Source of the DNA: an uncultured Alphaproteobacteria bacterium | Lineage (GTDB): Bacteria; Pseudomonadota; Alphaproteobacteria; HIMB59; GCA-002718135 | Reading direction: 5' to 3' | NCBI GenBank assembly: GCA_902571865.1 | Contig: CACGDO010000005.1 | Coordinates: forward strand, 1,486-65,485 | Length of the DNA stretch: 64,000 nucleotides | Shown here: positions 44,890-64,000 of the stretch, piece after piece | Numbering within the stretch: position 1 is the stretch's first letter | Layout: each line of letters begins with the position of its first letter | Made by a program: the position numbers and the translations under genes | Notes under the pieces: generated by a model | Database searches by the model: none | Told to the model about the DNA's origin: nothing | Seen by the model: the letters and a program-made list of their open reading frames with translations, nothing else

Positions 44890-44901
44890 ATAGGGTTTAA
44901 A

Positions 44902-45864: not shown

Positions 45865-46825
45865 TAAAAATGATATTATTCAACATGTAAATTTGAATAA
45901 AAATCTCATACCAATAATAGAGGAGGCTTTCATAAGTTTATCAAAGGGATTGGTAATGATGCCACCTATAATGAGAATTGATATTGAAAAATATCATGGT
46001 GAATCAGATGTTAAAGCTGCATACATTGAGGGTTTTGACAGTTTTGCAATAAAAATCGCTTCAGGTTTTTTTGATAATCCAAAACTTGGTTTGCCATCTA
46101 GTAATGGACTGATGGTTTTATTAGATTCAAAGACTGGAGTTGTAAAATCTGTTTTATTGGATGAAGGTTATCTTACAGATACTAGAACAGCTATAGCAGG
46201 AGCAATAGCTACAAAATATTTATCAAATCAAAATGCTAATTCTGTTGGTATTATCGGAGCTGGAATTCAAGCCAAATTACAACTTCAAGCAATAATGTTA
46301 GTTAGAAAAATAAAAAAAATAACAGTCTGGACAAGAGATGAGACAAAAGCAAACCAATTTATCGAAGGTTTTAAAGATTTAGATTTAGATTTGCATGTAG
46401 CTTCTTCTTGCAAGGAGTTGGCAAGCTTATCAGAAATAATCGTTACAACAACTCCTAGTAAAAAACCGCTTTTGCAATTTGATTGGATAATTAAAGGAAC
46501 TCACATAACAGCAATGGGATCAGATGCAGAACAAAAAAACGAATTAGATCCTCAGTTGTTAAAACATTGCGATCAATATGTACCTGACAATCAATTACAA
46601 ACAAGTGTTTTGGGTGAATTACATCATGCTTTAAAACAAAATATAATTTCTTCTAAAGAAAAATTTAATGAACTTGGCGATATTATTAACGATCCAAGCT
46701 TAGGAAGAAAAAATAAAGAAGATATAACAATATGTGATTTGACAGGAACTGGCGTACAAGATACTGCAATAGCAAGATTTGCTTATAATCTTTGTAAAAC
46801 AAATAATTTAGGCATCAATATTTAA
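45851..46825 (+). CDS. eutC: EutC-like ornithine cyclodeaminase/mu-crystallin family protein
   Basis: MPPIMRIDI..GESDVKAAY, GFFDNPKLGLPS.NG, GYLTDTRTA, DLTGTGVQD. Confidence 0.82.
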   Translation: MLILNKNDIIQHVNLNKNLIPIIEEAFISLSKGLVMMPPIMRIDIEKYHGESDVKAAYIEGFDSFAIKIASGFFDNPKLGLPSSNGLMVLLDSKTGVVKSVLLDEGYLTDTRTAIAGAIATKYLSNQNANSVGIIGAGIQAKLQLQAIMLVRKIKKITVWTRDETKANQFIEGFKDLDLDLHVASSCKELASLSEIIVTTTPSKKPLLQFDWIIKGTHITAMGSDAEQKNELDPQLLKHCDQYVPDNQLQTSVLGELHHALKQNIISSKEKFNELGDIINDPSLGRKNKEDITICDLTGTGVQDTAIARFAYNLCKTNNLGINI

Positions 46826-46828
46826 TTT

Positions 46829-48271: not shown

Positions 48272-48274
48272 GTT

Positions 48275-49429
48275 ATGAAAACTCAGTCATTACATAACCA
48301 ATTAGTAGAATGGCGTCATGATCTTCATATGCACCCACAATTAAGTTTTGAAGAAGAGTATGCTGCAGCAAAAGTATCAACACTTCTAAAAGAATTTGGA
48401 ATAGAAGTTCATTCTGGTATTGCCAGAACTGGAGTAGTTGGAATTTTAAAAAAAGGAAATAGTTCAAATTCAATAGGTATAAGAGCTGACATGGATGCTC
48501 TTCCTATACATGAAACTAATAAGTTTAGTTATAAGTCCAAGTTTGATAACAGAATGCATGCATGTGGACATGATGGTCACACAACAATGTTATTAGGTGC
48601 AGCAAAATATTTATCAGAAAAAGGTAACTTTAACGGTACGGTATATTTTATTTTTCAACCTGATGAAGAGAATACATTTGGTGCAAGAACAATGATAGAT
48701 GAAGGATTGTTTGATAAATTTAACATTGATGAAGTTTACGCTATGCACAATATTCCTAACATGGAAATTGGAACATTTGGTACAAGAAATGGAGCTATTA
48801 CAGCCAGTGAAAATTTATTTGAAATTGAAATAAAAACTAAAGGTGGGCACGCTGCATTACCTCATATGGGGGTAGATGCAATAACTGTTGGTTCTCAAAT
48901 AGCTGTAGCACTTCAATCGATAGTGTCTAGGAAATTAAATCCAGCAGACAATGGTATAGTGTCTATTACTGAATTTATAACCGATGGTAAAAAAAATGTT
49001 CTGCCAGGTATGGTAAAAATGACTGGTGACGCGAGAGCTTTATCAAAAGAAACAAATGAAAAAATTGCTTCAAAAATGTTACAAATTGTCGAAGGGATTT
49101 GCAATGCACATGGTGTTAATGGTAGTGTTAAATATGAAACAGCCTGTCCTGTAACTTTTAATTCAAAAAATCAAACTGAGTCTGCAACAAAAGCTGCAGT
49201 TTCTTTACTTGGTAATGATAAATGTAATGGTAATATAGAACCTCGTTTATTCTCAGAAGATTTTTCTGTTATGGCAAATGAAAAACCTGGCTGCTTTGTT
49301 TTAATGGGTAACGGAACATCAGAGCAGCATTCCAGACCTTTACATGCTGATAATTATGATTTTAATGACGAATTATTAGTCATAGGTTCTTCATATTGGA
49401 CTGAATTGGTAGAACAACAATTAAAATAA
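48275..49429 (+). CDS. M20D-family amidohydrolase (hippurate hydrolase-like)
   Basis: IRADMDALP, MHACGHDGH, FQPDEE, GGHAA.PH, SEDF, LH. Confidence 0.9.
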   Translation: MKTQSLHNQLVEWRHDLHMHPQLSFEEEYAAAKVSTLLKEFGIEVHSGIARTGVVGILKKGNSSNSIGIRADMDALPIHETNKFSYKSKFDNRMHACGHDGHTTMLLGAAKYLSEKGNFNGTVYFIFQPDEENTFGARTMIDEGLFDKFNIDEVYAMHNIPNMEIGTFGTRNGAITASENLFEIEIKTKGGHAALPHMGVDAITVGSQIAVALQSIVSRKLNPADNGIVSITEFITDGKKNVLPGMVKMTGDARALSKETNEKIASKMLQIVEGICNAHGVNGSVKYETACPVTFNSKNQTESATKAAVSLLGNDKCNGNIEPRLFSEDFSVMANEKPGCFVLMGNGTSEQHSRPLHADNYDFNDELLVIGSSYWTELVEQQLK

Positions 49430-50587
49430 ATGTTTTCTGAAAACTTAAATAAACTAAAGAAAAAAATGTCTGAGAACAATATTGATCTCTCAATTATAAC
49501 TGATGATGACTCGATATATTATTTCACAGGATACCATGACTTCCTTCATATGGATTTTTATCGACCAACATTATTAGTTGTTTCAAATGATCATAAAACT
49601 TATTTAATTACACCTCTTCTTGATGTTTTATTAGTACCAGAATCTTGTCCTGTAGATATGGTTGAAACATGGAATGATGGTATTGGAAATGAATGGAGAG
49701 AATTATTACCTCAAATCATCAATCAGCATAAAAATATTTTTATTGAAAAATTTAAAATTAACCCAATGGTTAAGAGTTATTTAGACGAATTACTTAAAGA
49801 CCATCCTGGGGATTTAACCAAATTAATAGATAATATAAGAATGATTAAATCTAATCATGAATTGAATATAGCTCGTCATGCCGGCGAAGTTGGTATGGCT
49901 ATGATGGAGGCAGCAAAAAAAACAATTGGCCATAATGTTCCTGAGTATGAGGTTGCACTTGCACAATCACAAGCTGGAACAAGAAAAGCTGCAGATCTTT
50001 TAAAAGAATTTTATCCTGATAATATCAATATGTCTCCAAATATTCACTTTTTACCTGTTATGACATCGGGTCATGATTTACCTAAAACTCACCATCGTGC
50101 TTCAACCAAAATTATAAAAAAAGGTGATCCAGTATTCGTATGTTATTGTGGTTCTACAAATTTCCATAGGTTTAAATTAGGTTTTGACAGAATATTTTGG
50201 GTAGAAGAAATTCAATCCGATGAACAAATAAAAGCTTTTGAGACTGCAGTTAAATCTCAAAAAGCTGCTCTTGAAATTCTTGGCCCTGGAGTAACAGCTG
50301 AAGAAGTTCATGCTGCTTATGCAGATACTATACAGTCTGAGGGATACCCTTATCCTACATTTCGATGTGGAAGAGGTACAGGCTTTAGCTTTTTAGAGGA
50401 ACCACAATTAGTAGTTGGTAATAAAACAGTACTGGAGCCTGGAATGGTATTTGCCGTTGATGGCGGGGCAAGTGCAAATAATTTTAGATCACAAGTTGGT
50501 GATAGTTTTATTATAACAGAAGAAGGATACGAACAAATAACACATCATTCTAAAAATATTGATGATCTAATAATTCCACATGGATGA
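49430..50587 (+). CDS. M24 pita-bread-fold hydrolase, metal-independent (creatinase/ectoine-hydrolase-like)
   Basis: Creatinase-type N-domain (YFTGY), R.IKS..E linker, C-domain lacking the usual D/D/H/E/E metal ligands. Confidence 0.75.
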   Translation: MFSENLNKLKKKMSENNIDLSIITDDDSIYYFTGYHDFLHMDFYRPTLLVVSNDHKTYLITPLLDVLLVPESCPVDMVETWNDGIGNEWRELLPQIINQHKNIFIEKFKINPMVKSYLDELLKDHPGDLTKLIDNIRMIKSNHELNIARHAGEVGMAMMEAAKKTIGHNVPEYEVALAQSQAGTRKAADLLKEFYPDNINMSPNIHFLPVMTSGHDLPKTHHRASTKIIKKGDPVFVCYCGSTNFHRFKLGFDRIFWVEEIQSDEQIKAFETAVKSQKAALEILGPGVTAEEVHAAYADTIQSEGYPYPTFRCGRGTGFSFLEEPQLVVGNKTVLEPGMVFAVDGGASANNFRSQVGDSFIITEEGYEQITHHSKNIDDLIIPHG

Positions 50588-51605
50588 AATCACAGTATTT
50601 AACACACATTGCTGTGGTGAAATTGGGGATGTTGTAACTGGAATTAAAGGCTTGAATTTTAAATCACCTGAAGAAGCTTCTAAAAAACTTTTTTTAGATA
50701 AAAAATGGAGAAATTTTTTTCTAAATGAACCTCGAGGAGGGGTCTTTAAACATTGTAATATTATTTTAGAACCTTCAAATAAAAATGCAGATGCTGGATT
50801 TGTAATTATGGAACCAGAAGATAATCCTCCAATGAGTGGGTCAAATGCAATTTGTGTAACGACAGTCTTATTAGAAAAAAATATTGTTCAAATGAAATAT
50901 CCTAAAACCATGCTTACACTTGAAGCTCCAGGTGGTTTAATAAAAGTTGTTGCTGATTGTGAAAATAAGAAAGTTAAAAGTGTCACTTTAACTAATCTTG
51001 CCTGCTTTGCAGATAAAATAGATGTAGATTTAAAGACTAAAAATTATGGTACAATTAAAGTAAGTACTGCTTTTGGAGGTGACAGTTTTTTAATTTGTAA
51101 TGCTAGTGATTTTAATCTTAAAATTGAACCAAAGAATGCAAATAAATTTGTAAATGTTGCAAAAGAATTATTAAAAGAAGCAAACGCATCTATAGGATTT
51201 GAGCATCCTACTATTAATGGATTAGACTATCTTTCCTTTTGCCAATTTATTGAACCCTTAAAAAAAAATAATCAATCATTACTTACAGGATTAAATACAG
51301 TTGTTATACGACCTGGGAAACTTGATCGTTCACCTTGCGGCACAGGCACTTCAGCAAGATTAGCAGTAATGAAAGAAAAAAATGAAATACAAATAAATGA
51401 AGAATTTATATCAAAGTCTATTATAGGATCTTCATTTAACGCAAGTATTGAAAAGGAAATTAAAATTAATAACAAAAATTGTATTATTCCAAAAATAACA
51501 GGTAGTGCATTTATTACTGGAAAACAAAGTTTATATATCGATAAGGATGATCCTTTTCCAGAAGGTTATAGATTAAATGACACATGGCCAGATTCATTAA
51601 GTTAA
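50580..51605 (+). CDS. Proline racemase superfamily enzyme (Ser/Cys active-site pair)
   Basis: EPRGG, PMSGSNAIC, DRSPCGTGTSA, ITGSA. Confidence 0.88.
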   Translation: MDEITVFNTHCCGEIGDVVTGIKGLNFKSPEEASKKLFLDKKWRNFFLNEPRGGVFKHCNIILEPSNKNADAGFVIMEPEDNPPMSGSNAICVTTVLLEKNIVQMKYPKTMLTLEAPGGLIKVVADCENKKVKSVTLTNLACFADKIDVDLKTKNYGTIKVSTAFGGDSFLICNASDFNLKIEPKNANKFVNVAKELLKEANASIGFEHPTINGLDYLSFCQFIEPLKKNNQSLLTGLNTVVIRPGKLDRSPCGTGTSARLAVMKEKNEIQINEEFISKSIIGSSFNASIEKEIKINNKNCIIPKITGSAFITGKQSLYIDKDDPFPEGYRLNDTWPDSLS

Positions 51606-51681
51606 CTGTGATTAAATAACACTAGTATGGCGAGTTAATTTATTTTACTTTCATCAACTATTCTAATAATTAATAAAACAA

Positions 51682-52947
51682 ATGACAAAATTTAATGCCT
51701 GGAATGTAATTAAAAACGGTTTAAATGGTCAGTCTTATTGGACTAGACAATGGCGTGATCCAGAACCAAAAAGTAGTTATGACGTTGTAATAATTGGGGG
51801 AGGTTTGCACGGTCTTGCCACAGCATATTATTTAGCAAAGAATCATAATATAAAAAATGTAGCTGTCTTAGAAAAAGGCTGGATTGGTGGAGGAAACGCT
51901 GGACGTAATACCACTATTGTAAGATCAAATTATATGATGCCAGGCAACCACGAATTTTATGAACATTCTTTAAAGTTATGGGAAAATTTAAGTCACGAAT
52001 TAAATTATAATGTAATGTTTAGCCAACGAGCTCATGTCTCGTTATTTCATAGCCCTGGTGCTAAAGATTCAGTTTCACGGATTTATAATATTATGCGACT
52101 CCACGGAACTGATGCAGAACTTTGGGATTTAAAAACTTTAAAGAAAAAAATTCCGCATTTAAATTATCATAATTCTAGATTTCCAATACTTGGAGCTGCA
52201 GTTCAAAAAAGAGCAGGCAATGCAAGACACGATGCAGTTGCATGGGGTTATGCAAGGGCTGCAGATACATTAGGTGTAGACATTTTGCAAAATTGTGAAG
52301 TTACAGGTTTTACAAGAAAGAATGGAAATATTGAAAGTATTCAAACTTCAAGAGGAATTATAAAAGGAAAGAAAATAGGATTTGCTGTTGCAGGTAATAC
52401 TTCAGTATTATGGCAAATGGCAGAATTAGGCAACCTGCCAATTGAGTCTCATAAACTACAAGCATTTGTATCTGAGGCTGTTAAGCCACTCCTAGATCAG
52501 GTTGTTGTTTACGGTGTAGGTGGTGCACATTTCTATATATCGCAGTCAGACAAAGGAAGTATGGTGTTTGGTGGTGATCTTGACTGGTATAAATCATATG
52601 CTCAAAGAGGAAATCTTCCTATGGTTCAAGATGTTGCTGAAGCGGCCATGGCAATATTTCCTTCACTTGGGAGAATAAGATTACTTCGTCATTGGGCAGG
52701 TGTTATGGACATGACAATGGACGGATCATTTTTTATTTGTAAAACACCGATATCTAATCTCTATTTAAATGCTGGTTGGAACTATGGGGGTTTTAAAGCA
52801 AGTCCAGCATCAGGTTGGTATTTTGCCGACTTAATTGCAAATGAAAGCCCGCATAACTACGTGCAAAATCATAATTTAGAAAGATTTGAAAAAGGTATCA
52901 ATATAGATGAACGTGGTGCAGGACCTGATCCGAAATTGCACGGTTAA
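51682..52947 (+). CDS. soxB: Heterotetrameric sarcosine oxidase family beta subunit
   Basis: GGGLHG, GRNTTIVRSNY, ARHDAVAW, GWNYGGFKA. Confidence 0.9.
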   Translation: MTKFNAWNVIKNGLNGQSYWTRQWRDPEPKSSYDVVIIGGGLHGLATAYYLAKNHNIKNVAVLEKGWIGGGNAGRNTTIVRSNYMMPGNHEFYEHSLKLWENLSHELNYNVMFSQRAHVSLFHSPGAKDSVSRIYNIMRLHGTDAELWDLKTLKKKIPHLNYHNSRFPILGAAVQKRAGNARHDAVAWGYARAADTLGVDILQNCEVTGFTRKNGNIESIQTSRGIIKGKKIGFAVAGNTSVLWQMAELGNLPIESHKLQAFVSEAVKPLLDQVVVYGVGGAHFYISQSDKGSMVFGGDLDWYKSYAQRGNLPMVQDVAEAAMAIFPSLGRIRLLRHWAGVMDMTMDGSFFICKTPISNLYLNAGWNYGGFKASPASGWYFADLIANESPHNYVQNHNLERFEKGINIDERGAGPDPKLHG

Positions 52948-53232
52948 ATGATTAGAATTAATTGTCCTTATTGTGGTGAAAGAGATCATAGTGAATTTAG
53001 TTATGGAGGAGATGCAACAATCAATTATCCTTCGTTAGATGCATCAGAGAAAGAATGGACTGAAGCTATATTTTTCAGAAAAAATATAAAAGGTTTTCAA
53101 TTTGAAACATGGCATCATTCTAATGGATGTAGAATGTGGTTGGTAGTTGAACGTTCTACTGTCACTCATGAAATAAAAAGTGTCAAACCATCCCATCCGG
53201 ATTTACAGAAGATTGTAGAAAATAATAAATGA
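52948..53232 (+). CDS. soxD: Sarcosine oxidase family delta subunit
   Basis: CPYCG.R...EF.YGG, WHHSNGC zinc ligands. Confidence 0.92.
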   Translation: MIRINCPYCGERDHSEFSYGGDATINYPSLDASEKEWTEAIFFRKNIKGFQFETWHHSNGCRMWLVVERSTVTHEIKSVKPSHPDLQKIVENNK

Positions 53233-56186
53233 AGACAAGAAGAATAGATAACTATGGAAAAATTAATAGAGATAAAATTTTATCCTTTAGGTGGGATAAA
53301 AAAAATTACAAAGGTTTTGAAGGAGATACTCTAGCATCAGCATTACTTGCAAATAATATTGGTATAGTTGGTAGAAGTTTTAAATATCATAGACCAAGGG
53401 GAATATTTTCTAGTGGAGTCGAGGAGTCCGGTGCTTTAGTTACTATTGGTTCAAAAGATAGAAGAGATCCAAATGTAAGAGCAACAACGCAAGAATTATA
53501 TAATGGTTTGGAAGCAAGTGGTCAAAATGCATTTCCAAATGTAAATTTTGATCTAGCTGGAATAAATAATTACTTAGGTAGGTTTTTTGCAGCTGGTTTT
53601 TATTATAAAACTTTTATGGGAATACCTCCACTTGAATGGGGTAAAGGAACAGCCATATGGATGTTTTTTGAAAAGTTTATTAGAAAAGCTGCGGGAATGG
53701 GAAGTGCTTCTGGGTTACCTGATCCAGATACTTATGAGCATGCTCATGATTTTTGTGATTTAATTGTTGTAGGATCAGGACCTGCTGGTGTTGCAGCTGC
53801 AATAGAGGCAGCAGAAAAAAAATTAGATGTTATTTTAGTTGAGCAAGATAGTCTTATTGGAGGAAATCAACTTGCAGAAAATGATTTTGATAACTCACAA
53901 ATTAAAAATCAACTTGAAAATCTAGGCATAAAAATAATGACTAGAACTACTGCATTCGGATTATATGATAATTGTGTTGTTGGTTTATTAGAGAGAGTAA
54001 CAGACCATATATCAGCATCAAATGTAAACATTCCACGCCAAAGATTTTGGACCATTAGAGCAAAGCATATAATTGTTGGTGCTGGAGCAATTGAAAGACA
54101 CATTGCATTTAATAATAATGATATTCCTGGTGTAATGACCGTAAATGCATCAAAGCATTATTTGAATAGATATGGTGTACTCACCGGAAAAAGAATTGTG
54201 ATAGCTACAAATAATGATTCTGTTTATGAAACAGCACATCAATTATCAGAAGCTGGGGCCAATGTAACTGTTCTTGATTCACGAACTAATTTTGAAATTG
54301 AGACAAATAAAAGTTTTGAAATAAGAAAAGGGTATGTACCTTATAATATTAATGGTTCAAAAAAAATTAATAGTTTAGATATATCAAAAAGTGTAACTAT
54401 TAATAAATCTGAAACTATAAATTGTGATCAGGTTCTATTATCAGGTGGCTGGTCACCTGCTGTACATTTGTTATCTCACAGAGGCGTAAAGCCTAAATGG
54501 GATTATAACAATGCTTGTTTTTTACCAAGTGACACAAAAGAAAATATTACAATGGTAGGTTCTTCTAGAGGTTTATGGAATAAAAATGATTGTATTGCTT
54601 CTGGGATAGCAGGAACTACTGATGCGTTGAACCGTTTAGGTATTTCTAAAACAAATTATTTTTTCCCAAAACCTGGTGGATGGAAAAATCCCATACAACC
54701 ACTTTATGAAGTAAAATATAAAAAATCTAGATCAAAAAGTTTTGTAGATTATCAACATGATGTAACAACAGATGACGTAAGACTCGCACATCGTGAAGGT
54801 TTCATTTCGGTAGAGCATCTTAAAAGATACACAACTTTAGGTATGGCAAACGATCAAGGAAAAATGGGAAATATCATTGGATTGTCTTTAATGGCAGAAC
54901 TTTTAAATAAAGAAATTTCAGAAGTTGGAACTACTGTTTTTAGACCTCCTTATACTCCTGTATCTATAGGTGCCTTAAGCGGAAGAAATGTTGGAAAACA
55001 TTTTAGGCCGTTAAGAGTAACGCCAATGCATCAATGGAATATTGATCATGGTGCAAAAATGATTGAAGTTGGATTGTATCAAAGACCTTGGTATTATCCC
55101 AAAGAAAATGAAACTTTAAGTGACTCTTATATAAGAGAAGCATCAACAGTAAGAAAAACAGTTGGAATTTGTGATGTAACATCATTAGGCAAAATAGCTA
55201 TTCAAGGACCAGACTCTACCGAATTTTTAAATAGAATTTATTCGAATGGTTTTTCAAAACTACAAGTTGGAAAAGCTAGATACGGTATCATGTTACGTGA
55301 TGACGGTATTGTAATGGATGATGGCACATCTTGGAGATTAGCAGAAAATGAATATTTTATGACGACGTCTACAGGTGAAGCTGCAAAAGTGATGTCATGG
55401 TTAGAAGAATTACTTCAAACTAGATGGACAGATCTTAATGTTAATGTGACTAGTGTTTCTGAACAATGGGCAGGCGTATCAATTGCAGGACCTAAATCTA
55501 GAGAAGTTCTCAATAATTGTGTCGATGATTCTTTGGTTATAACTAATAATAACTTACCTTTTATGGGTGTTACTTCAACATTTCTTAAAGGTAATATTCC
55601 TTGTAGGATTGCAAGAATTAGTTTTTCCGGCGAATTAGCTTTTGAAGTTTATGTCAAATCAGATTTTGCCAATACAATGATGGACTTACTTTGGGAAAAT
55701 GCAAAAAAATATGATGGATGTTTATATGGATTAGAAGCTTTAGGTGCGCTTAGAGTTGAAAAAGGTCATGTAACAGCTGCTGAGCTTGATGGGAGGGTAA
55801 CAATTGATGATGCAGGTTTAAGCAAAATGGCATCTACAAAAAAATCATATATTGGAAGCGCAATGAGAAAACGAGGAGTTTTAAAAAATAATGATCGTGA
55901 AATTCTAGTAGGCTTCTTTCCTACAAATCTAAAAGAAACTTTTAATGCTGGAACTATTGTGTGTGAAAAAAATAATATTAAAGGACAGGGTATCGGAAGA
56001 ATCACCTCAGTCACTTATTCTCCAGAACTTGGACATTGGATTGGAATAGGTTTTGTAAAAGGTGGTTTAGATAAATGGAAAGATACCACTTTAGTAGGCG
56101 CAGACCCTGTAAGAAATAAACAAATGAATTTAAAAGTTGTTTCACCACATATGATTGATCCTAAAGGAGAACGAATGTATGCATAG
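53229..56186 (+). CDS. soxA: Sarcosine oxidase family alpha subunit (NAD-binding plus GcvT-like folate domain)
   Basis: GDTLASAL, FKYHRPRG, GSGPAG, KRYTTLGMA.DQGK, RISFSGELAFE. Confidence 0.92.
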   Translation: MKTRRIDNYGKINRDKILSFRWDKKNYKGFEGDTLASALLANNIGIVGRSFKYHRPRGIFSSGVEESGALVTIGSKDRRDPNVRATTQELYNGLEASGQNAFPNVNFDLAGINNYLGRFFAAGFYYKTFMGIPPLEWGKGTAIWMFFEKFIRKAAGMGSASGLPDPDTYEHAHDFCDLIVVGSGPAGVAAAIEAAEKKLDVILVEQDSLIGGNQLAENDFDNSQIKNQLENLGIKIMTRTTAFGLYDNCVVGLLERVTDHISASNVNIPRQRFWTIRAKHIIVGAGAIERHIAFNNNDIPGVMTVNASKHYLNRYGVLTGKRIVIATNNDSVYETAHQLSEAGANVTVLDSRTNFEIETNKSFEIRKGYVPYNINGSKKINSLDISKSVTINKSETINCDQVLLSGGWSPAVHLLSHRGVKPKWDYNNACFLPSDTKENITMVGSSRGLWNKNDCIASGIAGTTDALNRLGISKTNYFFPKPGGWKNPIQPLYEVKYKKSRSKSFVDYQHDVTTDDVRLAHREGFISVEHLKRYTTLGMANDQGKMGNIIGLSLMAELLNKEISEVGTTVFRPPYTPVSIGALSGRNVGKHFRPLRVTPMHQWNIDHGAKMIEVGLYQRPWYYPKENETLSDSYIREASTVRKTVGICDVTSLGKIAIQGPDSTEFLNRIYSNGFSKLQVGKARYGIMLRDDGIVMDDGTSWRLAENEYFMTTSTGEAAKVMSWLEELLQTRWTDLNVNVTSVSEQWAGVSIAGPKSREVLNNCVDDSLVITNNNLPFMGVTSTFLKGNIPCRIARISFSGELAFEVYVKSDFANTMMDLLWENAKKYDGCLYGLEALGALRVEKGHVTAAELDGRVTIDDAGLSKMASTKKSYIGSAMRKRGVLKNNDREILVGFFPTNLKETFNAGTIVCEKNNIKGQGIGRITSVTYSPELGHWIGIGFVKGGLDKWKDTTLVGADPVRNKQMNLKVVSPHMIDPKGERMYA

Positions 56187-56742
56187 ACATTCTGCACTAG
56201 AAACAATTTATAAGGTTGGAAAATATTCATCAAGCGAGAAACAATCTCTAACATTTAAAGAATTAAAAAGTTTAGAAATTTTGCAAATTGCTTGTTGGCC
56301 TGACAAAATTGATGAAATGAATAATTTAATATCAAAAGAACTAAAAATTAAAAATATTCCTAGTTTTAATAAAGGGATAATTTTTGAAAATAAATCATTA
56401 TGGAGAATGGAACCTTTGAAATGGTGGCTATTTAATAAAGAAATTGAAATAAGTGAGCAAATCGCAACAATTTTAGACATGTCTCATGCTTTTACAGGTA
56501 TTGAAATTACAGGAGATAATTCATCATTATTTTTAAATAGACATCTTCCAATTGATTTAAGAGCTAGGAATTTTCCAGATCTATCTTCTGCTAGCACAGC
56601 TATTCATCATGTCAGTGTTAAGCTATTTAAAATAACTTCCAATAACTACTGTCTATATATACCAAGAGGTTTTGCTTTATCAATTTGGGAGATCCTTCTT
56701 GAAACAGCGGATCAGTTTGGATACGAAGTATTAGAGAGATAG
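56179..56742 (+). CDS. soxG: Sarcosine oxidase family gamma subunit
   Basis: Position after soxA with 8-nt overlap; DMSHA...I.ITG, PIDL, RGFA..IW..L. Confidence 0.8.
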   Translation: MHRHSALETIYKVGKYSSSEKQSLTFKELKSLEILQIACWPDKIDEMNNLISKELKIKNIPSFNKGIIFENKSLWRMEPLKWWLFNKEIEISEQIATILDMSHAFTGIEITGDNSSLFLNRHLPIDLRARNFPDLSSASTAIHHVSVKLFKITSNNYCLYIPRGFALSIWEILLETADQFGYEVLER

Positions 56743-56816
56743 ATAAGTTATCTTGGGGTAACGGAAACTGGTTATAAACTAATTACTAATGTATTTAGCA
56801 ATTTGCATATAGTAAA

Positions 56817-57497
56817 TTAATCATTTGCATCACCACCTCCAGCACCTTTGGCTCTAGATTCCTCTGACTCAGGTACAAAAGTTCTAAAAGCTATCTTAGA
56901 TATTTGATCCCAAGATTTTTTATCAGGATTTATGCCTTCAGATAGCAAATTATTTATATTTGATGATGGAATATTAATATCTAACTTTTGTTCATTTAAA
57001 ATATTTTTTGTAAGTAAAAGATCAAAATTTCTTTGATAATTTGTAGAGATAATATCTCTATTAATACTAATATTTTTATTTGTTATTTGTGCATTAACTT
57101 TTTGATCTAACAAAAACTGTGAATTGATATTTTTTTTTGCATACTTATAAAGCAAAGGTATTAGGAATATGGGATCATTGCAATTTTTTATAGTTAATAT
57201 TAAATTTTCTTTTTTATCTACTTTTGATATCAAATAATCAATTAATCCTGGCCCTATCATCAAAAAAGATTTATTTTTACAATCAAACTCATCATTTATA
57301 TTTGATGGATCTATGCTAGCATTAAAAGTGTTATCTAATTCTTTAATTTTTAATGTTAATAATTTGATTCCATCTAAACCAAGTATTTCAAGCCAAGTTG
57401 TAATAAATGCAGCGTCTTCATCTGATCCATATGTGAACCCTAATCCTGAAAAAGCTCGCTGTGAATTAGTGTAGACTTCATAATAAGAGTAACTCAC
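56817..57497 (-). CDS. DUF3726-like protein of unknown function (probable GTG start 57497; track start 57533)
   Basis: N-terminal S..EV....QRAF.GLG..YG..EDAA....WL...GLDG pattern; C-terminal SEESRAKGAG. Confidence 0.55.
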   Translation of the reverse strand: MSYSYYEVYTNSQRAFSGLGFTYGSDEDAAFITTWLEILGLDGIKLLTLKIKELDNTFNASIDPSNINDEFDCKNKSFLMIGPGLIDYLISKVDKKENLILTIKNCNDPIFLIPLLYKYAKKNINSQFLLDQKVNAQITNKNISINRDIISTNYQRNFDLLLTKNILNEQKLDINIPSSNINNLLSEGINPDKKSWDQISKIAFRTFVPESEESRAKGAGGGDAND

Positions 57498-57502
57498 AGA
57501 TA

Positions 57503-59167
57503 TTAATATGAATTCATTGTTGCAAAACCCCATTCATCAACATTTTTATTATTTAGATCTGATAGATAAGGAGCTCCAGAAAAAAAACTTACTCTTAACC
57601 ATCTATCTGACTTAGGATCATATCGATTGGCACCAAAAAAAGATAATTTAAATCTTAACATATCAATTGGTATTGTTTTTTTATCGAGAACATTATCTTG
57701 AACTTCCGAATAAGGATAATTTTTTAAAGATTGTATTCTTTTAATAATTCCTCTGTATTCGGGATGTGTTAATAAAAATTCACAAATTAATTGATTTTCA
57801 TCTACATTTTTTATTTGCTTAAATAAGTCACTGACCATTTTTGCAATTCCTAAATTTTGCTCCAATTCACTTCCTTGCTCATTATATCTTTCACCCAGCC
57901 TAGGTTCTAACTTTGCTGCTGAAACATACCAAAATAAATAATTGCTATCATTGTTATTAAAATCAATATCTTTTATCCAAGAATATTTATCATTGATTAT
58001 TTGTTTTAAATCTCCGATAGATTGATTTCCATCAATTTCCATTATCTCCTCATCTGCCATATCTTCTGCTAACTCTTCTGATATTTGAGGATACAATTCA
58101 ATTAGTTGTACTCTTGCAATTTCTTGAGTATCATTATTAAAATTTGAATCACAATAATCTAGAATATCTAACCATTTAAATTTTTGAGAGAGATCTAAGT
58201 CATTAATATAGAAAATATATTTTTTTAAATCTTCAGTAGTTAATTTATTTTTATTAATTTGGAATTCATCACTTGTGTTTACTTCCTCAAGATAATTAAG
58301 AGCTTTATTCAACAGTTTTTTATATTTTTCAAAAATTATACTATCTAACTCAATTTGAGAAATTGCTTCTAATGTCTTTGTGTACTGTTTCATCCACTTA
58401 TTAATCAACTTTGGATGCTTAATGATAAAAGGTGCCATACCTAAACCTGTTGAATTACCAATACCTAAATGTTGTTTAATTTTTCTATCTAACTTTACTG
58501 CTTTTTTTGGATTAATTTGCCTTGCAACATGCTCGACTAATTCAATACTAAATTCTCTAATTAAATAAACTGATAACATTTCTGCTCTAAAGGGTTGATT
58601 GAAAACAGTTGTATTTTTTGTGTTAGTAAAATCTGATAATCCAAATTTACCACTACCATAAACAGCAGTAGTTCTCAGTAAATACCCAACTTTATTTATT
58701 TCATAAATATCTGGCTGATTACCATTTGAAAGACAATCGACAACATACTGAAACAATCTTACACTTTTATTTGCTCTGCTAAGAATTAACTCATCTGGAG
58801 AATTGCGACCTGATTCTTGAAGAGGAATTGTTTTTTTTAATCTATTTAGATCTTGATCAGATAATTTACCTACATGTAACGTATAGGCTGTATCCCATTT
58901 ACTAGCAATAACTCTATCACTTCTATCCTTATCATCTAGAAAAGCAGAGAAACATACAAGTGAATAAGTTTGCTTATTAATAATTATTTCATAAACAACA
59001 GTGCCGAAACCATATTTATCTAAATCAAATTTTGATTTATGTATTTCCCAGTTGTCATTGATCAATCTTCTTAACATACTTCTAGAAAAACTAAGGCGAG
59101 AAGGATAGCGTGAACCCATTCTTGATAGTTTCATGTAGTTATCGTTTTCTCTTACTTTTTGTAACAT
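57503..59167 (-). CDS. Conserved-looking hypothetical protein, 554 aa
   Basis: Long soluble ORF with enzyme-like low-variability segments (RSDRVIA..WD, GYLLRTTAVYGSGKFG, GIGNSTGLGMAPF, FFGANRYDPKSDRW); no family recognised. Confidence 0.8.
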   Translation of the reverse strand: MLQKVRENDNYMKLSRMGSRYPSRLSFSRSMLRRLINDNWEIHKSKFDLDKYGFGTVVYEIIINKQTYSLVCFSAFLDDKDRSDRVIASKWDTAYTLHVGKLSDQDLNRLKKTIPLQESGRNSPDELILSRANKSVRLFQYVVDCLSNGNQPDIYEINKVGYLLRTTAVYGSGKFGLSDFTNTKNTTVFNQPFRAEMLSVYLIREFSIELVEHVARQINPKKAVKLDRKIKQHLGIGNSTGLGMAPFIIKHPKLINKWMKQYTKTLEAISQIELDSIIFEKYKKLLNKALNYLEEVNTSDEFQINKNKLTTEDLKKYIFYINDLDLSQKFKWLDILDYCDSNFNNDTQEIARVQLIELYPQISEELAEDMADEEIMEIDGNQSIGDLKQIINDKYSWIKDIDFNNNDSNYLFWYVSAAKLEPRLGERYNEQGSELEQNLGIAKMVSDLFKQIKNVDENQLICEFLLTHPEYRGIIKRIQSLKNYPYSEVQDNVLDKKTIPIDMLRFKLSFFGANRYDPKSDRWLRVSFFSGAPYLSDLNNKNVDEWGFATMNSY

Positions 59168-59221
59168 TTATTAAATATCTGTAGTTAATTTTGGTTTTTT
59201 CATTAATAGAAGTATTAATCT

Positions 59222-60208
59222 ATGTCAAAAATAAGTGAAGATATACTTCTAATTGATGGATTGGAATATTGTAACTGGAATAGGGAATTATTTGAAAATG
59301 CCCACCAATCTGGATTAACTGCAATTCATGCGACATTAGTGTATTGGGAAAATACTGAAGAGTCTTTTGAAAAAATAAATTATTGGCACCGTCTTTTTAA
59401 AGAGCATCATGATATTATTGCTCACGCAAAAACTACCGAAGATATTTTGGATGCTAAAAAAAATAATAAAGTTGCAATTATTTTTGGTTTTCAAAATTCT
59501 GCTCCTATTGCGAATGATATATTTTTAATTGAAAAATTTTTTGAAGCAGGTGTAAGATTTATGCAACTCACCTATAATAATCAAACCCCACTCGCTGGAG
59601 GATGTTTTGAACCTAAAGACTCAGGTGTTTCACGATTTGGAAAAGCTGTTATTGAAGAAATGAATAGACTTGGCATGATTGTAGATTTAAGTCATGCAGG
59701 AAAGCAAACTTGTCTTGACGCTATTGAAGTCTCAAATAAACCTGTGGCAATTTCTCATGCTAACCCAAATTTCTTTCATAAATCTAAAAGAAACATTGAT
59801 ACTGATATTTTACAAAAACTTGTTAAAAAAAATGGTTTTATTGGGTTAAGTTTATATCCTTACCATCTTAAAAATTTAGGTGATTGTACCATAGAAGATT
59901 TTTGTGAAATGATTAAGGAGCTAGTAAACCTAATTGGTGAAGACAATATTGGAATAGGGTCTGATCTTTGTTTAAATTGGCCTGATGATGTAGTTATGTG
60001 GATGAGAAATGGAAACTGGACCAAAAATATCGACTATGGAGAATCTAAAGATAAAAATCCAAAATGGCCTAAGTTACCAAGTTGGTATAAACAACCAAGT
60101 GACTTAAATAATTTTTTTTATTTAATGTGTGAAAATAATATTCCAGAAAAAGTTTCTACAAAAATAATAGGTCAGAATTGGTTTAACTTCATGAAAAATC
60201 AATTTTAG
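59222..60208 (+). CDS. M19 membrane-dipeptidase-like amidohydrolase (non-canonical metal site)
   Basis: QLTYN, MNRLGMIVDLSH, AISHAN, GIGSD; the N-terminal HxD and bridging Glu are replaced. Confidence 0.82.
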   Translation: MSKISEDILLIDGLEYCNWNRELFENAHQSGLTAIHATLVYWENTEESFEKINYWHRLFKEHHDIIAHAKTTEDILDAKKNNKVAIIFGFQNSAPIANDIFLIEKFFEAGVRFMQLTYNNQTPLAGGCFEPKDSGVSRFGKAVIEEMNRLGMIVDLSHAGKQTCLDAIEVSNKPVAISHANPNFFHKSKRNIDTDILQKLVKKNGFIGLSLYPYHLKNLGDCTIEDFCEMIKELVNLIGEDNIGIGSDLCLNWPDDVVMWMRNGNWTKNIDYGESKDKNPKWPKLPSWYKQPSDLNNFFYLMCENNIPEKVSTKIIGQNWFNFMKNQF

Positions 60209-61068
60209 TTTCTACGACTAATAAAAGAAGCTGATAGCAAACTTATAATTACAATCGAAGCACCAATCATTTGATAAGTTTCTAAATTTTCTTTTAATAA
60301 AAAAACAGCTCCAAGAACACCTACCACTGGTTCTAAATACAAAAATAAAGCAGTATATGATTGTCCAATCTTTGGGATAGCAATTAATTGTGATAAAAGT
60401 GCAAAGCTATAACATACCGAAGGAATTATAATTAAAAGATAAATATTGAAATCAAAATTAAAATTTAATGAAAAAAATATTTTTAATATTACAAAGAAGA
60501 AAAAAGTATTAAAAACATTTATAAAGATATTAATTGGTATTGGTGAAATACCTTTAATAGACATTTTTTGATTTACTATAATCATACTAGTTGATCCAAG
60601 TGAGGCAAGAAAAGCTAAAAGAATACCTACTATATTTATGACTTTAAAAGATGGTCCTATAACTAAAACAATTCCTAAAAATGTAACAAAAAAGAGAATC
60701 TTTACAGTTAATGAAATTTTTTCTTTATCGACAATAATAGAAAATAAAAGAACATATATTGGATAGAGGCAAAAAATAAGAATTGTTAAACTAACTTCAA
60801 TAAATATAACTGAAGTCAATAATCCAAGCGTTAATAATATTGAACCCGCTGAAATAGATAAAAAGTATTTTAGGTTCTTTTTAAAAATTTCTAATAGATT
60901 CTTTTGATAAGGGATAAAAGGTAATATAATTATCGCGGCAACTGCGTAACGTAAAAAAATAGTTAATGCTACAGAGGCGCCTGAATTATATGCTATTTTT
61001 GTAGTAGGGCCAATTAGGCCAAACAAAATTCCAGCAACTAAAGCAAAAATAACTCCAAATATGAACAT
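60205..61068 (-). CDS. EamA/DMT-family transporter
   Basis: About 10 hydrophobic segments in two repeats, LRY, YLEPV. Confidence 0.85.
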   Translation of the reverse strand: MFIFGVIFALVAGILFGLIGPTTKIAYNSGASVALTIFLRYAVAAIIILPFIPYQKNLLEIFKKNLKYFLSISAGSILLTLGLLTSVIFIEVSLTILIFCLYPIYVLLFSIIVDKEKISLTVKILFFVTFLGIVLVIGPSFKVINIVGILLAFLASLGSTSMIIVNQKMSIKGISPIPINIFINVFNTFFFFVILKIFFSLNFNFDFNIYLLIIIPSVCYSFALLSQLIAIPKIGQSYTALFLYLEPVVGVLGAVFLLKENLETYQMIGASIVIISLLSASFISRRN

Positions 61069-61133
61069 TTTTTAAATTAACTTTTGACTATTTGTTTTCA
61101 TGCAGTTATTCAAGCTTCATTACAAAATATATT

Positions 61134-62222
61134 ATGAATGACACATCTCAAAGTTTCGTTAAATTTGAAAAGATTGATAAAAGTTATGATGGAGAAGTAC
61201 TAGTAGTAAAAAACTTAAACTTGGATATTGCTAAGGGTGAGTTTGTAACAATGTTGGGTCCATCAGGATCAGGTAAAACAACAACTTTGATGATGTTAGC
61301 TGGTTTTGAAACACCTACAAACGGTGAAATATTTTTAGATACTAAACCAATAAGTAAAATACCTCCTTATGAAAGAGAAATTGGAATGGTATTTCAAAAC
61401 TATGCTTTATTTCCCCACATGACTGTTGCAGAAAATTTATCATTCCCTCTAGAAGTAAGAAAAATTTCAAAACCAGATATTAAAGAAAAAGTGCAGAAAG
61501 CTCTTGATATGGTTGAGTTAGGAAATTTTGGTACTAGATTTCCTGCTCAATTATCTGGTGGACAACAACAAAGAGTTGCTTTGGCTAGAGCACTTGTATT
61601 TGAACCACGCCTTGTATTAATGGATGAGCCTTTAGGTGCACTTGATAAGAATTTGCGTGAACAGATGCAATACGAAATCAAACATATTCATGATAGGATT
61701 GGTATAACAGTTGTCTATGTTACACATGATCAAAGTGAAGCATTAACAATGTCCAACAGAATTGCAGTATTCAATGATGGTGTAGTACAACAATTATCTA
61801 CTCCTGATATTTTGTATGAAAAACCTGAAAATTCTTTTGTTGCTAAATTTATAGGTGAAAATAATACATTAAATGGTGTTGTTAAAGAAGTAAATGGTTC
61901 GTCATGTACTGTTGAATTAGATGGTGGTTTTGGAATGGTGAAAGCGTTAAAAATTAATGTGAATGAAGTTGGAGAAAAAACTCAACTATCTATTAGACCA
62001 GAACGTGTTTCAATAGACAGTTCTACTTCTGGCTCAAACAATTTTTCAGGAAAAATTGAAGAATTAATTTACCTAGGTGATCATATTAGAGCTAGGCTTG
62101 ATGTTTGTGGAAATAATGAGTTTATAGTAAAAGTCCCTAATGAAGGAAGTTTTAGTCATAAAGAAGGAGATCAACTTAATTTAAGCTGGGATTCCGAGGA
62201 TGTTAGAGCTCTAGATATTTAA
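61134..62222 (+). CDS. ABC transporter ATPase, PotA-like with TOBE domain
   Basis: GPSGSGKT, VFQNYALFPH, LSGGQQQR, LMDEPLGALD, YVTHDQ; ATG at 61134. Confidence 0.93.
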   Translation: MNDTSQSFVKFEKIDKSYDGEVLVVKNLNLDIAKGEFVTMLGPSGSGKTTTLMMLAGFETPTNGEIFLDTKPISKIPPYEREIGMVFQNYALFPHMTVAENLSFPLEVRKISKPDIKEKVQKALDMVELGNFGTRFPAQLSGGQQQRVALARALVFEPRLVLMDEPLGALDKNLREQMQYEIKHIHDRIGITVVYVTHDQSEALTMSNRIAVFNDGVVQQLSTPDILYEKPENSFVAKFIGENNTLNGVVKEVNGSSCTVELDGGFGMVKALKINVNEVGEKTQLSIRPERVSIDSSTSGSNNFSGKIEELIYLGDHIRARLDVCGNNEFIVKVPNEGSFSHKEGDQLNLSWDSEDVRALDI

Positions 62223-62353
62223 ATCTATTTTTTTATCGGTATTTGGCCAAAATTTTTTATTTTTACCTCTTTTTTTTCATTTAATGACATGTTATTAAAC
62301 CACCATTACGGACATAATCTTAAGATTAATTAATAAAAAATAGGAGGATATAT

Positions 62354-63457
62354 ATGTCTAAATTTTTAAAAACCTTCTTATTTGCGTCATTAGTGTTCGC
62401 TCCTTTTACAGCTAGCGCTGTAACAGTAGCTTCATGGGGTGGTGCTTATACAGAAAGTCAACAAAAAGCTTATGCTGACACATATTCTGATCCTAGCTCA
62501 ATTGTTTTTGAAAACTACAACGGAGGTTTAGGTGAAGTAAGAGCTCAAGTAGAAAGTGGAAGTGTTACTTGGGATTTAGTAGACGTTTTACCATCTGATG
62601 CAATCACGGGTTGTGATGAGGGTCTTTTCGAAGATATTTCATCTGAAATTGCAGCTAATGCTGTTCCTGGACCAGACGGTGAATCAATGGCAGAAGATAT
62701 GGAAAACAATGGACTTGAGTATCACTCAGGTTGGGATTGTTGTGTTCCACAAATTTTCTGGACATACGTTGTATTCTATGACCCAGATGCTTTCCCTGGT
62801 GAAAAACCAAATAGTATGGCTGACTTCTTTGATACAGAAAAGTTCCCTGGTAAAAGAGGTATTCATACTTGGGCAACAGGTATTATAGAAAAAGCTATGG
62901 TAGCAGATGGTGTAAAACCAAATGCAGTTCCAACAGTTTTAGCTAACCAAACAGGTGCTATTGATAGAGCATTTGAAGTTATGGACAGAATTAAAGATGA
63001 TGTAGTATTCTGGTCAGCTGGTTCTCAACCTCTTGAGTTAGTAAAAAGTGGAGAAGTTATAATGTCAGTTGCATATAACGGCCGTGTTGGTGCAGCTAAC
63101 CTAGCTGAAGGAGAAAACTTTGAATATATTTGGGAAGGTCAAGTTCTAGACCAAGAGTATCTTTGTCTAACTGCTGGTGCTCCTAACAGAGAAGCAGCAC
63201 TTGATTTCATGTGGCATGCTTCAACTCCTGAAGCACAAGCTGAACAAGCTAAATATATTACATATGGACCAATGAGAGCATCTGGTATTCCAATCATTAA
63301 AGCAGGTGAGCCTTTTGGACCAGGTGGCGTTGAAATTATGCCTCATATGCCTAATACTCCAGATCGTTTAGCAGTTTCAATCGTAAGTGATCCACAATGG
63401 TGGTCAGATTACGGTGCAGAAATTAATGAGCGTTATGCTGCGTGGATGGCTAACTAA
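62354..63457 (+). CDS. ABC transporter substrate-binding protein, PotD/PotF superfamily (SWGG subgroup)
   Basis: Signal peptide ending ASA, SWGGAY, FFDTEKFPGKR, AYNGR; strong GGAGG SD. Confidence 0.88.
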   Translation: MSKFLKTFLFASLVFAPFTASAVTVASWGGAYTESQQKAYADTYSDPSSIVFENYNGGLGEVRAQVESGSVTWDLVDVLPSDAITGCDEGLFEDISSEIAANAVPGPDGESMAEDMENNGLEYHSGWDCCVPQIFWTYVVFYDPDAFPGEKPNSMADFFDTEKFPGKRGIHTWATGIIEKAMVADGVKPNAVPTVLANQTGAIDRAFEVMDRIKDDVVFWSAGSQPLELVKSGEVIMSVAYNGRVGAANLAEGENFEYIWEGQVLDQEYLCLTAGAPNREAALDFMWHASTPEAQAEQAKYITYGPMRASGIPIIKAGEPFGPGGVEIMPHMPNTPDRLAVSIVSDPQWWSDYGAEINERYAAWMAN

Positions 63458-63488
63458 GCTTGATAAATTAAACTTTGTAATTTAATCT

Positions 63489-63514
63489 AAAGGCGAGAAT
63501 TATCTCGCCTTTTT
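63489..63514 (+). terminator. Intrinsic terminator/stabilising hairpin after the SBP gene
   Basis: AAAGGCGAGA-atta-TCTCGCCTTT followed by TT(A)TTT. Confidence 0.8.
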
Positions 63515-63528
63515 ATTTGGAGGTTACC

Positions 63529-64000
63529 ATTTCTACGGCTGAATTATTAACTACAGACGGCATTCCACTCAAACAAAGCCTTCGAAAAGCTGAAAGAAGA
63601 AATAAACTTCGTGCCTTTCTACTAGTATTTCCTTTACTTCTTTTTATTATTGTAACATTTGTAATGCCTATTGGTGACATGCTTCTAAGAAGCGTTGATG
63701 ATAGTCAAATTAATTCAGTATTTTCTAATACTTTTGATGAATATAAAAACTGGGATAAAGAAGCTGATGAACTGCCGCCTGAAGAAGTTTACAAAAGTCT
63801 TTTTTTTGAATTAGCAAATGGAGATAAGAGGCAGATAGGTAAAGCCTTAACAAGAATGAATTATGCTAAATCTGGTTGGAAAAGTTTAATAAAAAAAACT
63901 ACAAGAGAAATAAAAAAAATTGTTAAAAAGGGTGAAGAACCAGTTTCGTATAAAGATACATTTATTAAAATAAATAAGCTCTGGGCAGATCCAACTTACT
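63529..64000 (+). CDS. ABC transporter permease, PotB-like, 3'-truncated; start at ATT 63529 (or TTG 63517)
   Basis: Open frame to the window end: TTDGIPLKQSLRKAERRNKLRAFLLVFPLLLFIIVTFVMPIGDML (TM1) followed by a periplasmic loop; missing from the ORF track because no stop is in the window. Confidence 0.8.
   Translation, partial: MSTAELLTTDGIPLKQSLRKAERRNKLRAFLLVFPLLLFIIVTFVMPIGDMLLRSVDDSQINSVFSNTFDEYKNWDKEADELPPEEVYKSLFFELANGDKRQIGKALTRMNYAKSGWKSLIKKTTREIKKIVKKGEEPVSYKDTFIKINKLWADPTY

Follow-up and report, generated by a model that had tools for sequence, protein, structure and literature searches.

A conserved three-gene module in a deep SAR11 clade probably corresponds to the homarine-degradation genes homA, homB and homC

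Of the small nitrogen-containing metabolites that phytoplankton release, homarine (N-methylpicolinate, a methylated pyridinium carboxylate) is one of the most abundant; the ocean's most abundant heterotroph is SAR11. Here we describe three adjacent genes, encoding a 554-amino-acid (aa) protein, a DUF3726 protein and a protein similar to M19 dipeptidases, in a 64,000-nucleotide (nt) stretch of contig CACGDO010000005.1 from an uncultured alphaproteobacterium (hereafter the window, meaning the whole stretch of DNA that was analysed). The closest described system is the homarine catabolic operon homABCDER(+homT), published in March 2026 (Ferrer-González et al. 2026, Nat Microbiol 11:1531; PMC13236597). 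In Cobetia sp. OBi1 (ACFLL8_11490-11520) the gene order is homE-homA-homB-homT-homC-homD-homR, and in R. pomeroyi SPO3188-3192 are homA, homB, homC, homD and homR; HomC is annotated as a 'peptidase', HomD as 'aldehyde dehydrogenase-like' and homT as a 'glycine betaine transporter'. The gene homA is apparently the short one (its profile matches reach E 9.5e-57, those of homB 3.9e-240); the two genes are adjacent in 97.7% of genomes, and AlphaFold predicts a heterodimer of their products. Each of 120 Pelagibacter genomes was reported to carry the operon, though lacking homE; it was also reported in SAR116 and SAR92, and in-situ homB transcripts tracking homarine were attributed to Pelagibacter. 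The homB, homC, homD and homR mutants of R. pomeroyi and a homD deletion in Cobetia do not grow on homarine. Labelled homarine gave N-methylglutamate, N-methylglutamine and glutamate together with features of the formulas C7H9NO5, C6H9NO4 and C6H9NO3: the N-methyl group is kept through the opening of the pyridinium ring, and N-methylglutamate is then converted to glutamate by N-methylglutamate dehydrogenase. The homarine-induced, sox-annotated genes of R. pomeroyi were identified as mgdABCD, and mgd mutants grow poorly on homarine. As an analogue, the same work cites the TgnAB/TgnC/TgnD/TgnE pathway of trigonelline degradation in Acinetobacter baylyi (PMC13236597).

We consider it likely that the 554-aa protein of the window is HomB, the DUF3726 protein HomA and the M19-like protein HomC, that is, that the trio comprises SAR11 homarine-degradation genes, because gene order and annotation match the published operon gene for gene; these names are used below. 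The window contains a HomB homologue, homA directly beside homB and homC close by, and a sox/mgd-like operon stands alongside. Comparison with the operon of a Ruegeria species gave 40% identity over the full length for HomB (562-aa protein, E 4e-154), 41% for HomC (E 3e-108) and 23% for HomA (E 2e-16). In the literature, the SPO locus tags occur in the homarine paper and one small-RNA paper only. The first-pass annotation of this DNA, made from the letters of the sequence, had called the module uncharacterised; this no longer holds, since synteny equates it with homA, homB and homC, which were published in 2026 and reported in SAR11. The module has thus been known since then, and the chemistry of its enzymes is still unsolved. 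The same annotation had suggested a first attack on a methylated amine or betaine. On the one hand, the published system does attack a betaine, homarine, first; on the other hand, it opens the ring with the N-methyl group kept and does not perform a demethylation of the glycine-betaine type.

The three genes form a conserved functional unit, as that annotation had proposed. In a scan of one genome per species with a 12-sequence HomB alignment as the query, at least 599 loci of the 554-aa family were confirmed in species-representative genomes, spanning Alpha- and Gammaproteobacteria, Acidimicrobiales, Chloroflexota, Campylobacterota and others. For the best 80 of these at least 599 loci, together with the window (81 loci in all, with handles of the type L001), open reading frames (ORFs) were called and clustered. 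The large gene was present in 76 loci, the DUF3726 gene in 72 and the M19-like gene in 67; in the five loci where the large gene was missed, a coarse ORF filter apparently retained an ORF overlapping it instead. The homA gene adjoins homB in 72 of 76 loci, and the usual order is M19>554-aa>DUF3726 on a single strand. The trio thus co-occurs across several phyla, and no confident match to a housekeeping family was obtained. The M19-like gene is inverted solely in the window's clade (L001-L013). Recurrent neighbours are an aldehyde dehydrogenase (ALDH) gene, which stands immediately upstream of the M19-like one, a LysR regulator and betaine transporters of the BCCT or OpuA type, as well as RidA-like, Ldh_2, GcvT-like and MetF-like genes. 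For example, the order is LysR<ALDH>M19>BCCT>554-aa>DUF3726>RidA-like in Rhodobacteraceae (L064, L068 and L073), and LysR|ALDH, M19, 562-aa protein, DUF3726, Ldh_2 in Ruegeria sp.

Natural fusions of HomB and HomA also occur: many relatives of 760-816 aa consist of the 554-aa region followed by a C-terminal DUF3726 domain. One of them, P0124 (804 aa), comes from Arcobacter/Malaciobacter, and residues 1-220 of the window HomA align end to end with its residues 567-800; P0132, P0140 and P0149 are further fusion proteins, and those from Arcobacter/Malaciobacter are annotated as 'DUF3726 domain-containing protein'. Adjacent in nearly all loci and fused in Arcobacter/Malaciobacter, HomA and HomB are obligate partners. 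A distant clade (P0178, P0194, P0232 and P0237; 840-960 aa, about 23-31% identity, one from a Hyphomicrobiales metagenome-assembled genome) has 300-400 additional aa at the C-terminus, in which the DUF3726 signal is faint at best.

The 554-aa family is large. An exhaustive search of clusters at 50% identity returned 1266 representatives at E<=1e-3, of which 361 had E-values under 1e-30. A homologue search gave at least 8000 candidates, all at E<=0.001; among the matches listed (120), identity was 97-100%, and near-identical copies carry the label Pelagibacteraceae, which places the window in SAR11. Another HomB type of SAR11, about 45% identical to that of the window, was seen in L031, L044, L048, L065, L069 and other Pelagibacteraceae loci, where M19>HomB>HomA lies between purE/purK and a block of GcvT-like, MetF-like and OpuA-type betaine transporter genes. 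We considered two hom paralogues within SAR11 and rejected them: the two HomB types occur in different assemblies, never in the same one.

HomB itself has no match in Pfam, NCBIfam or the sequences of the PDB; in searches of the PDB sequences with phmmer and with a 57-sequence profile, the best match was P450 BM3 (E 0.04), with no passing stretch. Its AlphaFold2 model has a mean predicted local distance difference test score (pLDDT) of 94.8 and a predicted template-modelling score (pTM) of 0.94, and yet Foldseek found no neighbour for it in the PDB (best E 0.22, template-modelling score (TM) <=0.13). The earlier suggestion of a possibly new fold or family agrees with these searches. It had also pointed to four Gly/Arg/Trp-rich motifs, RTTAVYGSGKFG, GIGNSTGLGMAPF, FWYVS..KLEPRLGER and YDPKSDRW; all four are present and fall on invariant or near-invariant columns of the alignment of 57 sequences, which share only 26-62% identity with the window protein. 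Among the conserved positions of this alignment Arg, Gly and Trp are frequent, His is scarce and Cys is absent; thus, no classical Fe-S or 2-His-1-carboxylate site is evident. The HomB homologue of Ruegeria halocynthiae (P0406) bears the UniRef name 'EH_Signature domain-containing protein', which is probably a marginal automatic annotation; the window protein has no such Pfam match.

HomA is a DUF3726 protein by Pfam (PF12525; E 3.9e-10, 39.9 bits vs a cut-off of 22.1, residues 16-78 of the 238-aa ORF), and we found no paper on 'DUF3726' in the literature. Its C-terminal motif, RTFVPESEESRxKGAGxGxxDND, is conserved in an alignment of 72 homologues. The structure predicted for the fusion P0124 (pLDDT 88.1, pTM 0.87) was compared with the PDB by Foldseek: the top 24 matches all belong to the Ldh_2 family of type-2 malate/lactate dehydrogenases (E 2e-5 to 4e-3, probability 1.0), including DpkA, YiaK, AllD and ComC, and nothing else matched at E<=4e-3. 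This similarity belongs to the HomA domain, because the model of HomB alone gave no such matches. HomA is thus predicted to have an Ldh_2 fold, and no recognisable flavin fold. The Ldh_2 fold is that of NAD(P)H-dependent reductases of 2-oxo acids and cyclic imines, such as DpkA, a delta1-piperideine-2-carboxylate/N-methyl-amino-acid dehydrogenase. These enzymes reduce C=O or C=N beside a carboxylate, the same chemistry that is needed to reach N-methylglutamate. HomA differs from the Ldh_2 family in being about 100 residues shorter and in the apparent deletion of the 'SHG' loop. It has no match to Pfam Ldh_2 (PF02615). A genuine Ldh_2 gene often stands right after homA (Ruegeria L081, 10328-11335; Gammaproteobacteria L053, L063 and L075); homA and this gene may stem from a duplication, or the imine reduction may be the task of the neighbour. 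The RidA-like, Ldh_2 and M24 neighbours are candidates for the homE of the published operon.

HomC is a clear member of the M19 family (Pfam Peptidase_M19, PF01244; E 9.3e-72, 242.3 bits vs a cut-off of 26) with an altered metal site. In M19 dipeptidases the ligands of the binuclear zinc site are His20, Asp22, Glu125, His198 and His219 (DPEP1 numbering). The TIM-barrel amidohydrolase fold of DPEP1 (PDB 1itq) is common to HomC, which keeps H158, H179 and D248 as the equivalents of His198, His219 and Asp288. However, IDGLEY replaces the HxD motif of His20 and Asp22 (L-E-Y lies outside the Pfam match, which begins at profile position 39), and in the alignment to 1itq Q91 takes the position of Glu125, so that the binuclear zinc site cannot form in the same way. 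HomC therefore lacks three of the five canonical M19 zinc ligands, a pattern that is invariant in 67 of 67 orthologues and is also found in its best solved relative, PDB 2i5g, described only as 'amidohydrolase' (204.6 bits, E 1.9e-59). Such strict retention does not fit the label 'degenerate' that the gene had received. Judged by its residues, HomC appears to be a conserved mono- or non-metal variant and not a product of decay, and a dipeptide is unlikely to be its substrate.

These data also bear on whether the three ORFs are real. At a G+C content of 28-29% in the trio region (about 31% in the whole window), long spurious ORFs are less rare, and a dipeptidase without three of its five canonical metal ligands could be taken for the remnant of a pseudogene among chance or decaying ORFs. 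We give this next to no probability: the thousands of homologue candidates and the near-identical copies described above, the full-length homologues at 26-62% identity in several phyla, the pLDDT of the HomB model and the invariance of the altered M19 site in 67 orthologues all contradict it, and conservation refutes it.

The structure 2i5g leads to another reading, namely that the trio is an accessory module for N-methyl oxidases, acting in their assembly, in cofactor handling or in a side reaction. In P. aeruginosa, the dgc operon has the order PA5396 ('putative dipeptidase')-PA5397-dgcA-dgcB, so that PA5396 and PA5397 are paired with DgcA/DgcB in methylated-amine catabolism and might serve DgcAB in this manner. 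We take 2i5g to be PA5396 and PA5397 to be a DUF3726 protein, and presume that the dgc operon encodes no HomB-type protein. The fold of 2i5g is of the same divergent M19 subtype as HomC (IDGL for HxD, Gln for the bridging Glu), and in the window the module abuts soxBDAG-like genes. Against this, only some 25-28 of the 81 loci contain sox-like genes, and most of these are of SAR11-type lineages (clusters 3, 5, 6 and 12), and the trio directly adjoins them in the window's clade alone; no DgcAB-type cluster is prominent among the frequent neighbours, and the trio is accompanied by a transporter, an ALDH and a regulator of its own. Moreover, disruption of homB or homC abolishes growth of R. pomeroyi on homarine (PMC13236597), a phenotype specific to this substrate. 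An accessory role is thus highly improbable. A literature search for a SAR11 dipeptidase associated with dimethylglycine found nothing.

With the genes read as homA, homB and homC, a pathway can be proposed. Homarine would be imported, here probably by the adjacent PotD-type ATP-binding cassette (ABC) system, and its ring would be opened in an oxygen-dependent reaction by a HomA-HomB heterodimer, in which HomA would possibly supply or use NAD(P)H and not flavin. The aldehyde produced would be oxidised by an aldehyde dehydrogenase (a non-orthologous one in the window's clade). HomC would then hydrolyse an amide, most simply an N-formyl group (C7H9NO5 + H2O -> C6H9NO4 + formate), and reduction of a C=N or C=C bond would lead to N-methylglutamate (C6H11NO4), from which the adjacent sox-like (probably mgd) enzyme would form glutamate and a folate-bound one-carbon unit. 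The published formulas balance (homarine C7H7NO2 + O2 + H2O = C7H9NO5, and C6H9NO4 + 2H = C6H11NO4) and suggest that HomAB opens the ring with oxygen, that HomC hydrolyses a formyl amide and that a C=N or C=C bond is reduced in the manner of Ldh_2 enzymes.

The TgnAB system resembles this scheme, with a two-protein opening of an N-methylpyridinium carboxylate ring followed by oxidation of an aldehyde or lactone and hydrolysis of an amide. The trigonelline intermediates share the formulas C7H9NO5 and C6H9NO4. However, the end products of trigonelline are succinate semialdehyde and methylamine, and that of homarine is N-methylglutamate. In addition, neither HomA nor HomB has a recognisable pair of flavin-reductase and flavin-monooxygenase domains in Pfam, NCBIfam or fold searches. 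Taken jointly, HomB would have a fold without a solved relative and HomA would be a cut-down NAD(P)H protein of the Ldh_2 type; together they would open the ring without flavin, for example by hydride-driven dearomatisation followed by oxygenation, in a clade whose pathway is rewired and maybe serves another substrate. We put this combined picture forward tentatively, as one that may well prove wrong.

A number of points weigh against the homarine assignment or the chemistry drawn from it. The link to the validated proteins consists of synteny and family membership: the aligned comparators are Ruegeria operon proteins and not SPO3188-3190 or ACFLL8_11495-11510, and searches seeded with Lentibacter and Ruegeria proteins had many Ruegeria species but no DSS-3 among the matches listed. 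The assignment of steps to HomA, HomB and HomC is one that we infer. The Ldh_2 matches were obtained with a homologue, not with the window HomA, and their TM normalised to the target is 0.41-0.51. Alignment of HomA with neighbouring Ldh_2 genes by hhalign was weak (probability 12.8%, suggesting deletion of the 'SHG' loop); we therefore rejected an Ldh_2 assignment on sequence profiles and used the structural match alone. Furthermore, HomA is said to carry FAD-binding motifs (PMC13236597), but we could not reproduce a FAD-type domain (Pfam gave DUF3726 alone and the fold search Ldh_2 alone); the C-terminal GAGxG may be the motif that was meant.

Other points concern the window's clade. Its HomB forms a separate deep branch that is only 40-46% identical to every other clade. 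No homD orthologue lies within 10 kb in this clade: ALDHs encoded beside hom genes share at least 52% identity with each other, even between phyla, but the two ALDHs near the trio in the window's clade are only 31-37% identical to the HomD orthologues. Unlike in the hom operon of Cobetia and R. pomeroyi, homC is divergent and not co-directional, and homR, homE and a BCCT-type homT are lacking, with a PotD-type ABC transporter and an EamA protein instead. No LysR-type gene was found among the clustered ORFs of at least 80 aa in the window (45000-64000) or in the sister contigs L001-L012. With no homR and a different type of transporter, the substrate could differ in this clade.

In this deep SAR11 clade, the same enzyme family might act on a different osmolyte of the N-methylated pyridinium or betaine-like kind, such as trigonelline or a compound not yet described. 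The divergence of HomB, the missing HomD orthologue, the inversion of homC relative to every other lineage among the 81 loci and the replacement of the BCCT or OpuA-type transporter all agree with this, as does the osmolyte-catabolism island around the module (eutA/B/C-like and DoeB2-like genes). Yet all the invariant and near-invariant residues of HomB and its four motifs are retained, the HomC site is the same as in the other 66 orthologues, the neighbouring sox/mgd-like operon fits the known product N-methylglutamate, and the in-situ homB transcripts that track homarine were assigned to Pelagibacter (PMC13236597). We regard a different substrate as improbable, though clearly less so than an accessory role, and keep to the reading of the trio as homarine-degradation genes.

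The features of the locus are collected in Table 1. The first-pass annotation was exact about the layout: the DUF3726 gene lies 5 nt from the 554-aa gene, the M19-like gene diverges from the latter over 54 nt (starts at 59222 and 59167, on opposite strands), and the module stands between soxBDAG-like genes and the transporter genes (EamA, ABC ATPase and solute-binding protein, 60205-63457). The 554-aa ORF ends with TAA at 57505-57503, followed after 5 nt by the GTG at 57497. A mechanical ORF list starts the DUF3726 gene at ATG 57533 (238 aa, with a 31-nt overlap with homB); the GTG is the better start, because the 72-homologue alignment begins there. The spacer between homB and homC presumably holds both promoters. 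Promoter-like and terminator-like sites were no commoner in the region than in shuffled sequence, and no site was assigned; no Rfam family matched in the region, the spacer included.

Table 1. Coordinates of the hom-like genes and neighbouring features in the window
Feature	Coordinates	Strand	Remarks
homB-family gene, 554 aa	57503..59167	-	presumed large subunit of the ring-opening enzyme
homA-family gene, DUF3726, 226 aa	56817..57497	-	GTG start; small partner subunit
homB/homC divergent spacer, 54 nt	59168..59221	.	read straight off the sequence
homC-family gene, 328 aa	59222..60208	+	M19-fold amidohydrolase, altered metal site
soxB/soxD/soxA/soxG-like operon	51682..56742	+	candidate mgdABCD (N-methylglutamate dehydrogenase)
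EamA-family membrane transporter	60205..61068	-	Pfam EamA
ABC ATPase	61092-62222	+	Pfam ABC_tran+TOBE_2
PotD-type solute-binding protein	62354-63457	+	Pfam SBP_bac_8; permease genes past the window end

The sox-like operon ends 74 nt from homA (spacer 56743-56816). Two of its products pass the NCBIfam models of the sox families (SoxB 606 bits, cut-off 529; SoxA 1165, cut-off 1164) and two stay below them (SoxD 105, below 116.5; SoxG 51, below 144); the gamma subunit had no match to the sarcosine oxidase gamma chains in the PDB. Between sox and mgd, the NCBIfam cut-offs and the sarcosine oxidase subunits of the PDB gave no decision for this operon. Its adjacency to the trio makes it a candidate for mgdABCD, N-methylglutamate dehydrogenase. 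Two sox-type operons had been described in SAR11, and it was left undecided which paralogue is the N-methylglutamate dehydrogenase (Sun et al. 2011). The SoxG-like gene (56155-56742) is listed with a TTG start and shares its first 32 nt with the end of soxA; it encodes the most divergent subunit of the operon, consistent with the low soxG/mgdD identity reported in PMC13236597.

On the other side of the trio, EamA stands beside homC in the window's clade only (L001-L012). The PotD-type ABC system is a candidate homarine importer in this clade. In the sister contig L001, whose HomB is 99% identical to that of the window (as is that of L002), the genes of the ATPase and the solute-binding protein precede those of two permeases, of a flavoprotein similar to D-amino-acid dehydrogenases and of an ALDH. 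The PotD-type transporter (2239-8076 in L001) is also linked to hom genes in L029 (1458-5985) and L038 (15310-18658), and L027 shows the two permease families; these three loci come from unrelated lineages, among them a 'Deltaproteobacteria' metagenome-assembled genome and Arenicellales. Two ALDHs were tried as HomD and rejected: that of the window (41536-42987), which lies 14 kb away and scores as a succinate-semialdehyde dehydrogenase, and that of L001, 6.7 kb beyond homC, at the identity of 31-37% given above. Their profiles are succinate-semialdehyde-dehydrogenase-like or betaine-aldehyde-dehydrogenase-like; a plain BLAST criterion like that of the homarine paper would probably accept the ALDH of L001.

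Gene content varies between strains on the side of soxG. In L001 (12348-13523), L002, L003, L005, L010 and L011, a gene for a 391-aa ectoine-hydrolase-like protein (DoeA/EutD, M24) lies between homA and soxG; in the window, L004, L007 and L009 there is only the 74-nt spacer. Further upstream, a block at 43031-51605 resembles genes of ectoine and hydroxyectoine utilisation, with EutA-, EutB- and EutC-like (cyclodeaminase) genes, genes for a 480-aa protein similar to pyridoxal-phosphate enzymes, for a DoeB2-like deacetylase and for an M24 hydrolase, and one resembling trans-3-hydroxyproline dehydratase genes. The first ORF of the block (367 aa, 43031-44134) matches nothing in Pfam or NCBIfam. 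Together with the sox and hom genes, this block makes up an osmolyte-catabolism island.

What is new here is a HomB without a neighbour in the PDB, the predicted Ldh_2 fold of HomA, the conserved absence of three M19 zinc ligands in HomC, and a deep SAR11 clade without HomD and with a PotD-type transporter; the link to homarine was published in 2026, and the identification itself thus adds little. HomAB is biochemically uncharacterised, and an Ldh_2-like HomA with a HomB that has no structural relative in the PDB is a testable alternative to the analogy with TgnAB. The M19-like gene of the Pseudomonas dgc operon may share its mechanism with HomC, and PA5397, which we take to be the DUF3726 partner in that operon, may share its mechanism with HomA. 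That the hom genes adjoin one sox-like operon may help with the question of 2011, namely which of the SAR11 sox paralogues is the N-methylglutamate dehydrogenase, and oligotrophs may import homarine through the clade-specific PotD-type transporter. The hom identity, likely as we consider it, would give names to three 'hypothetical' genes and tie them to a measured flux of carbon and nitrogen.

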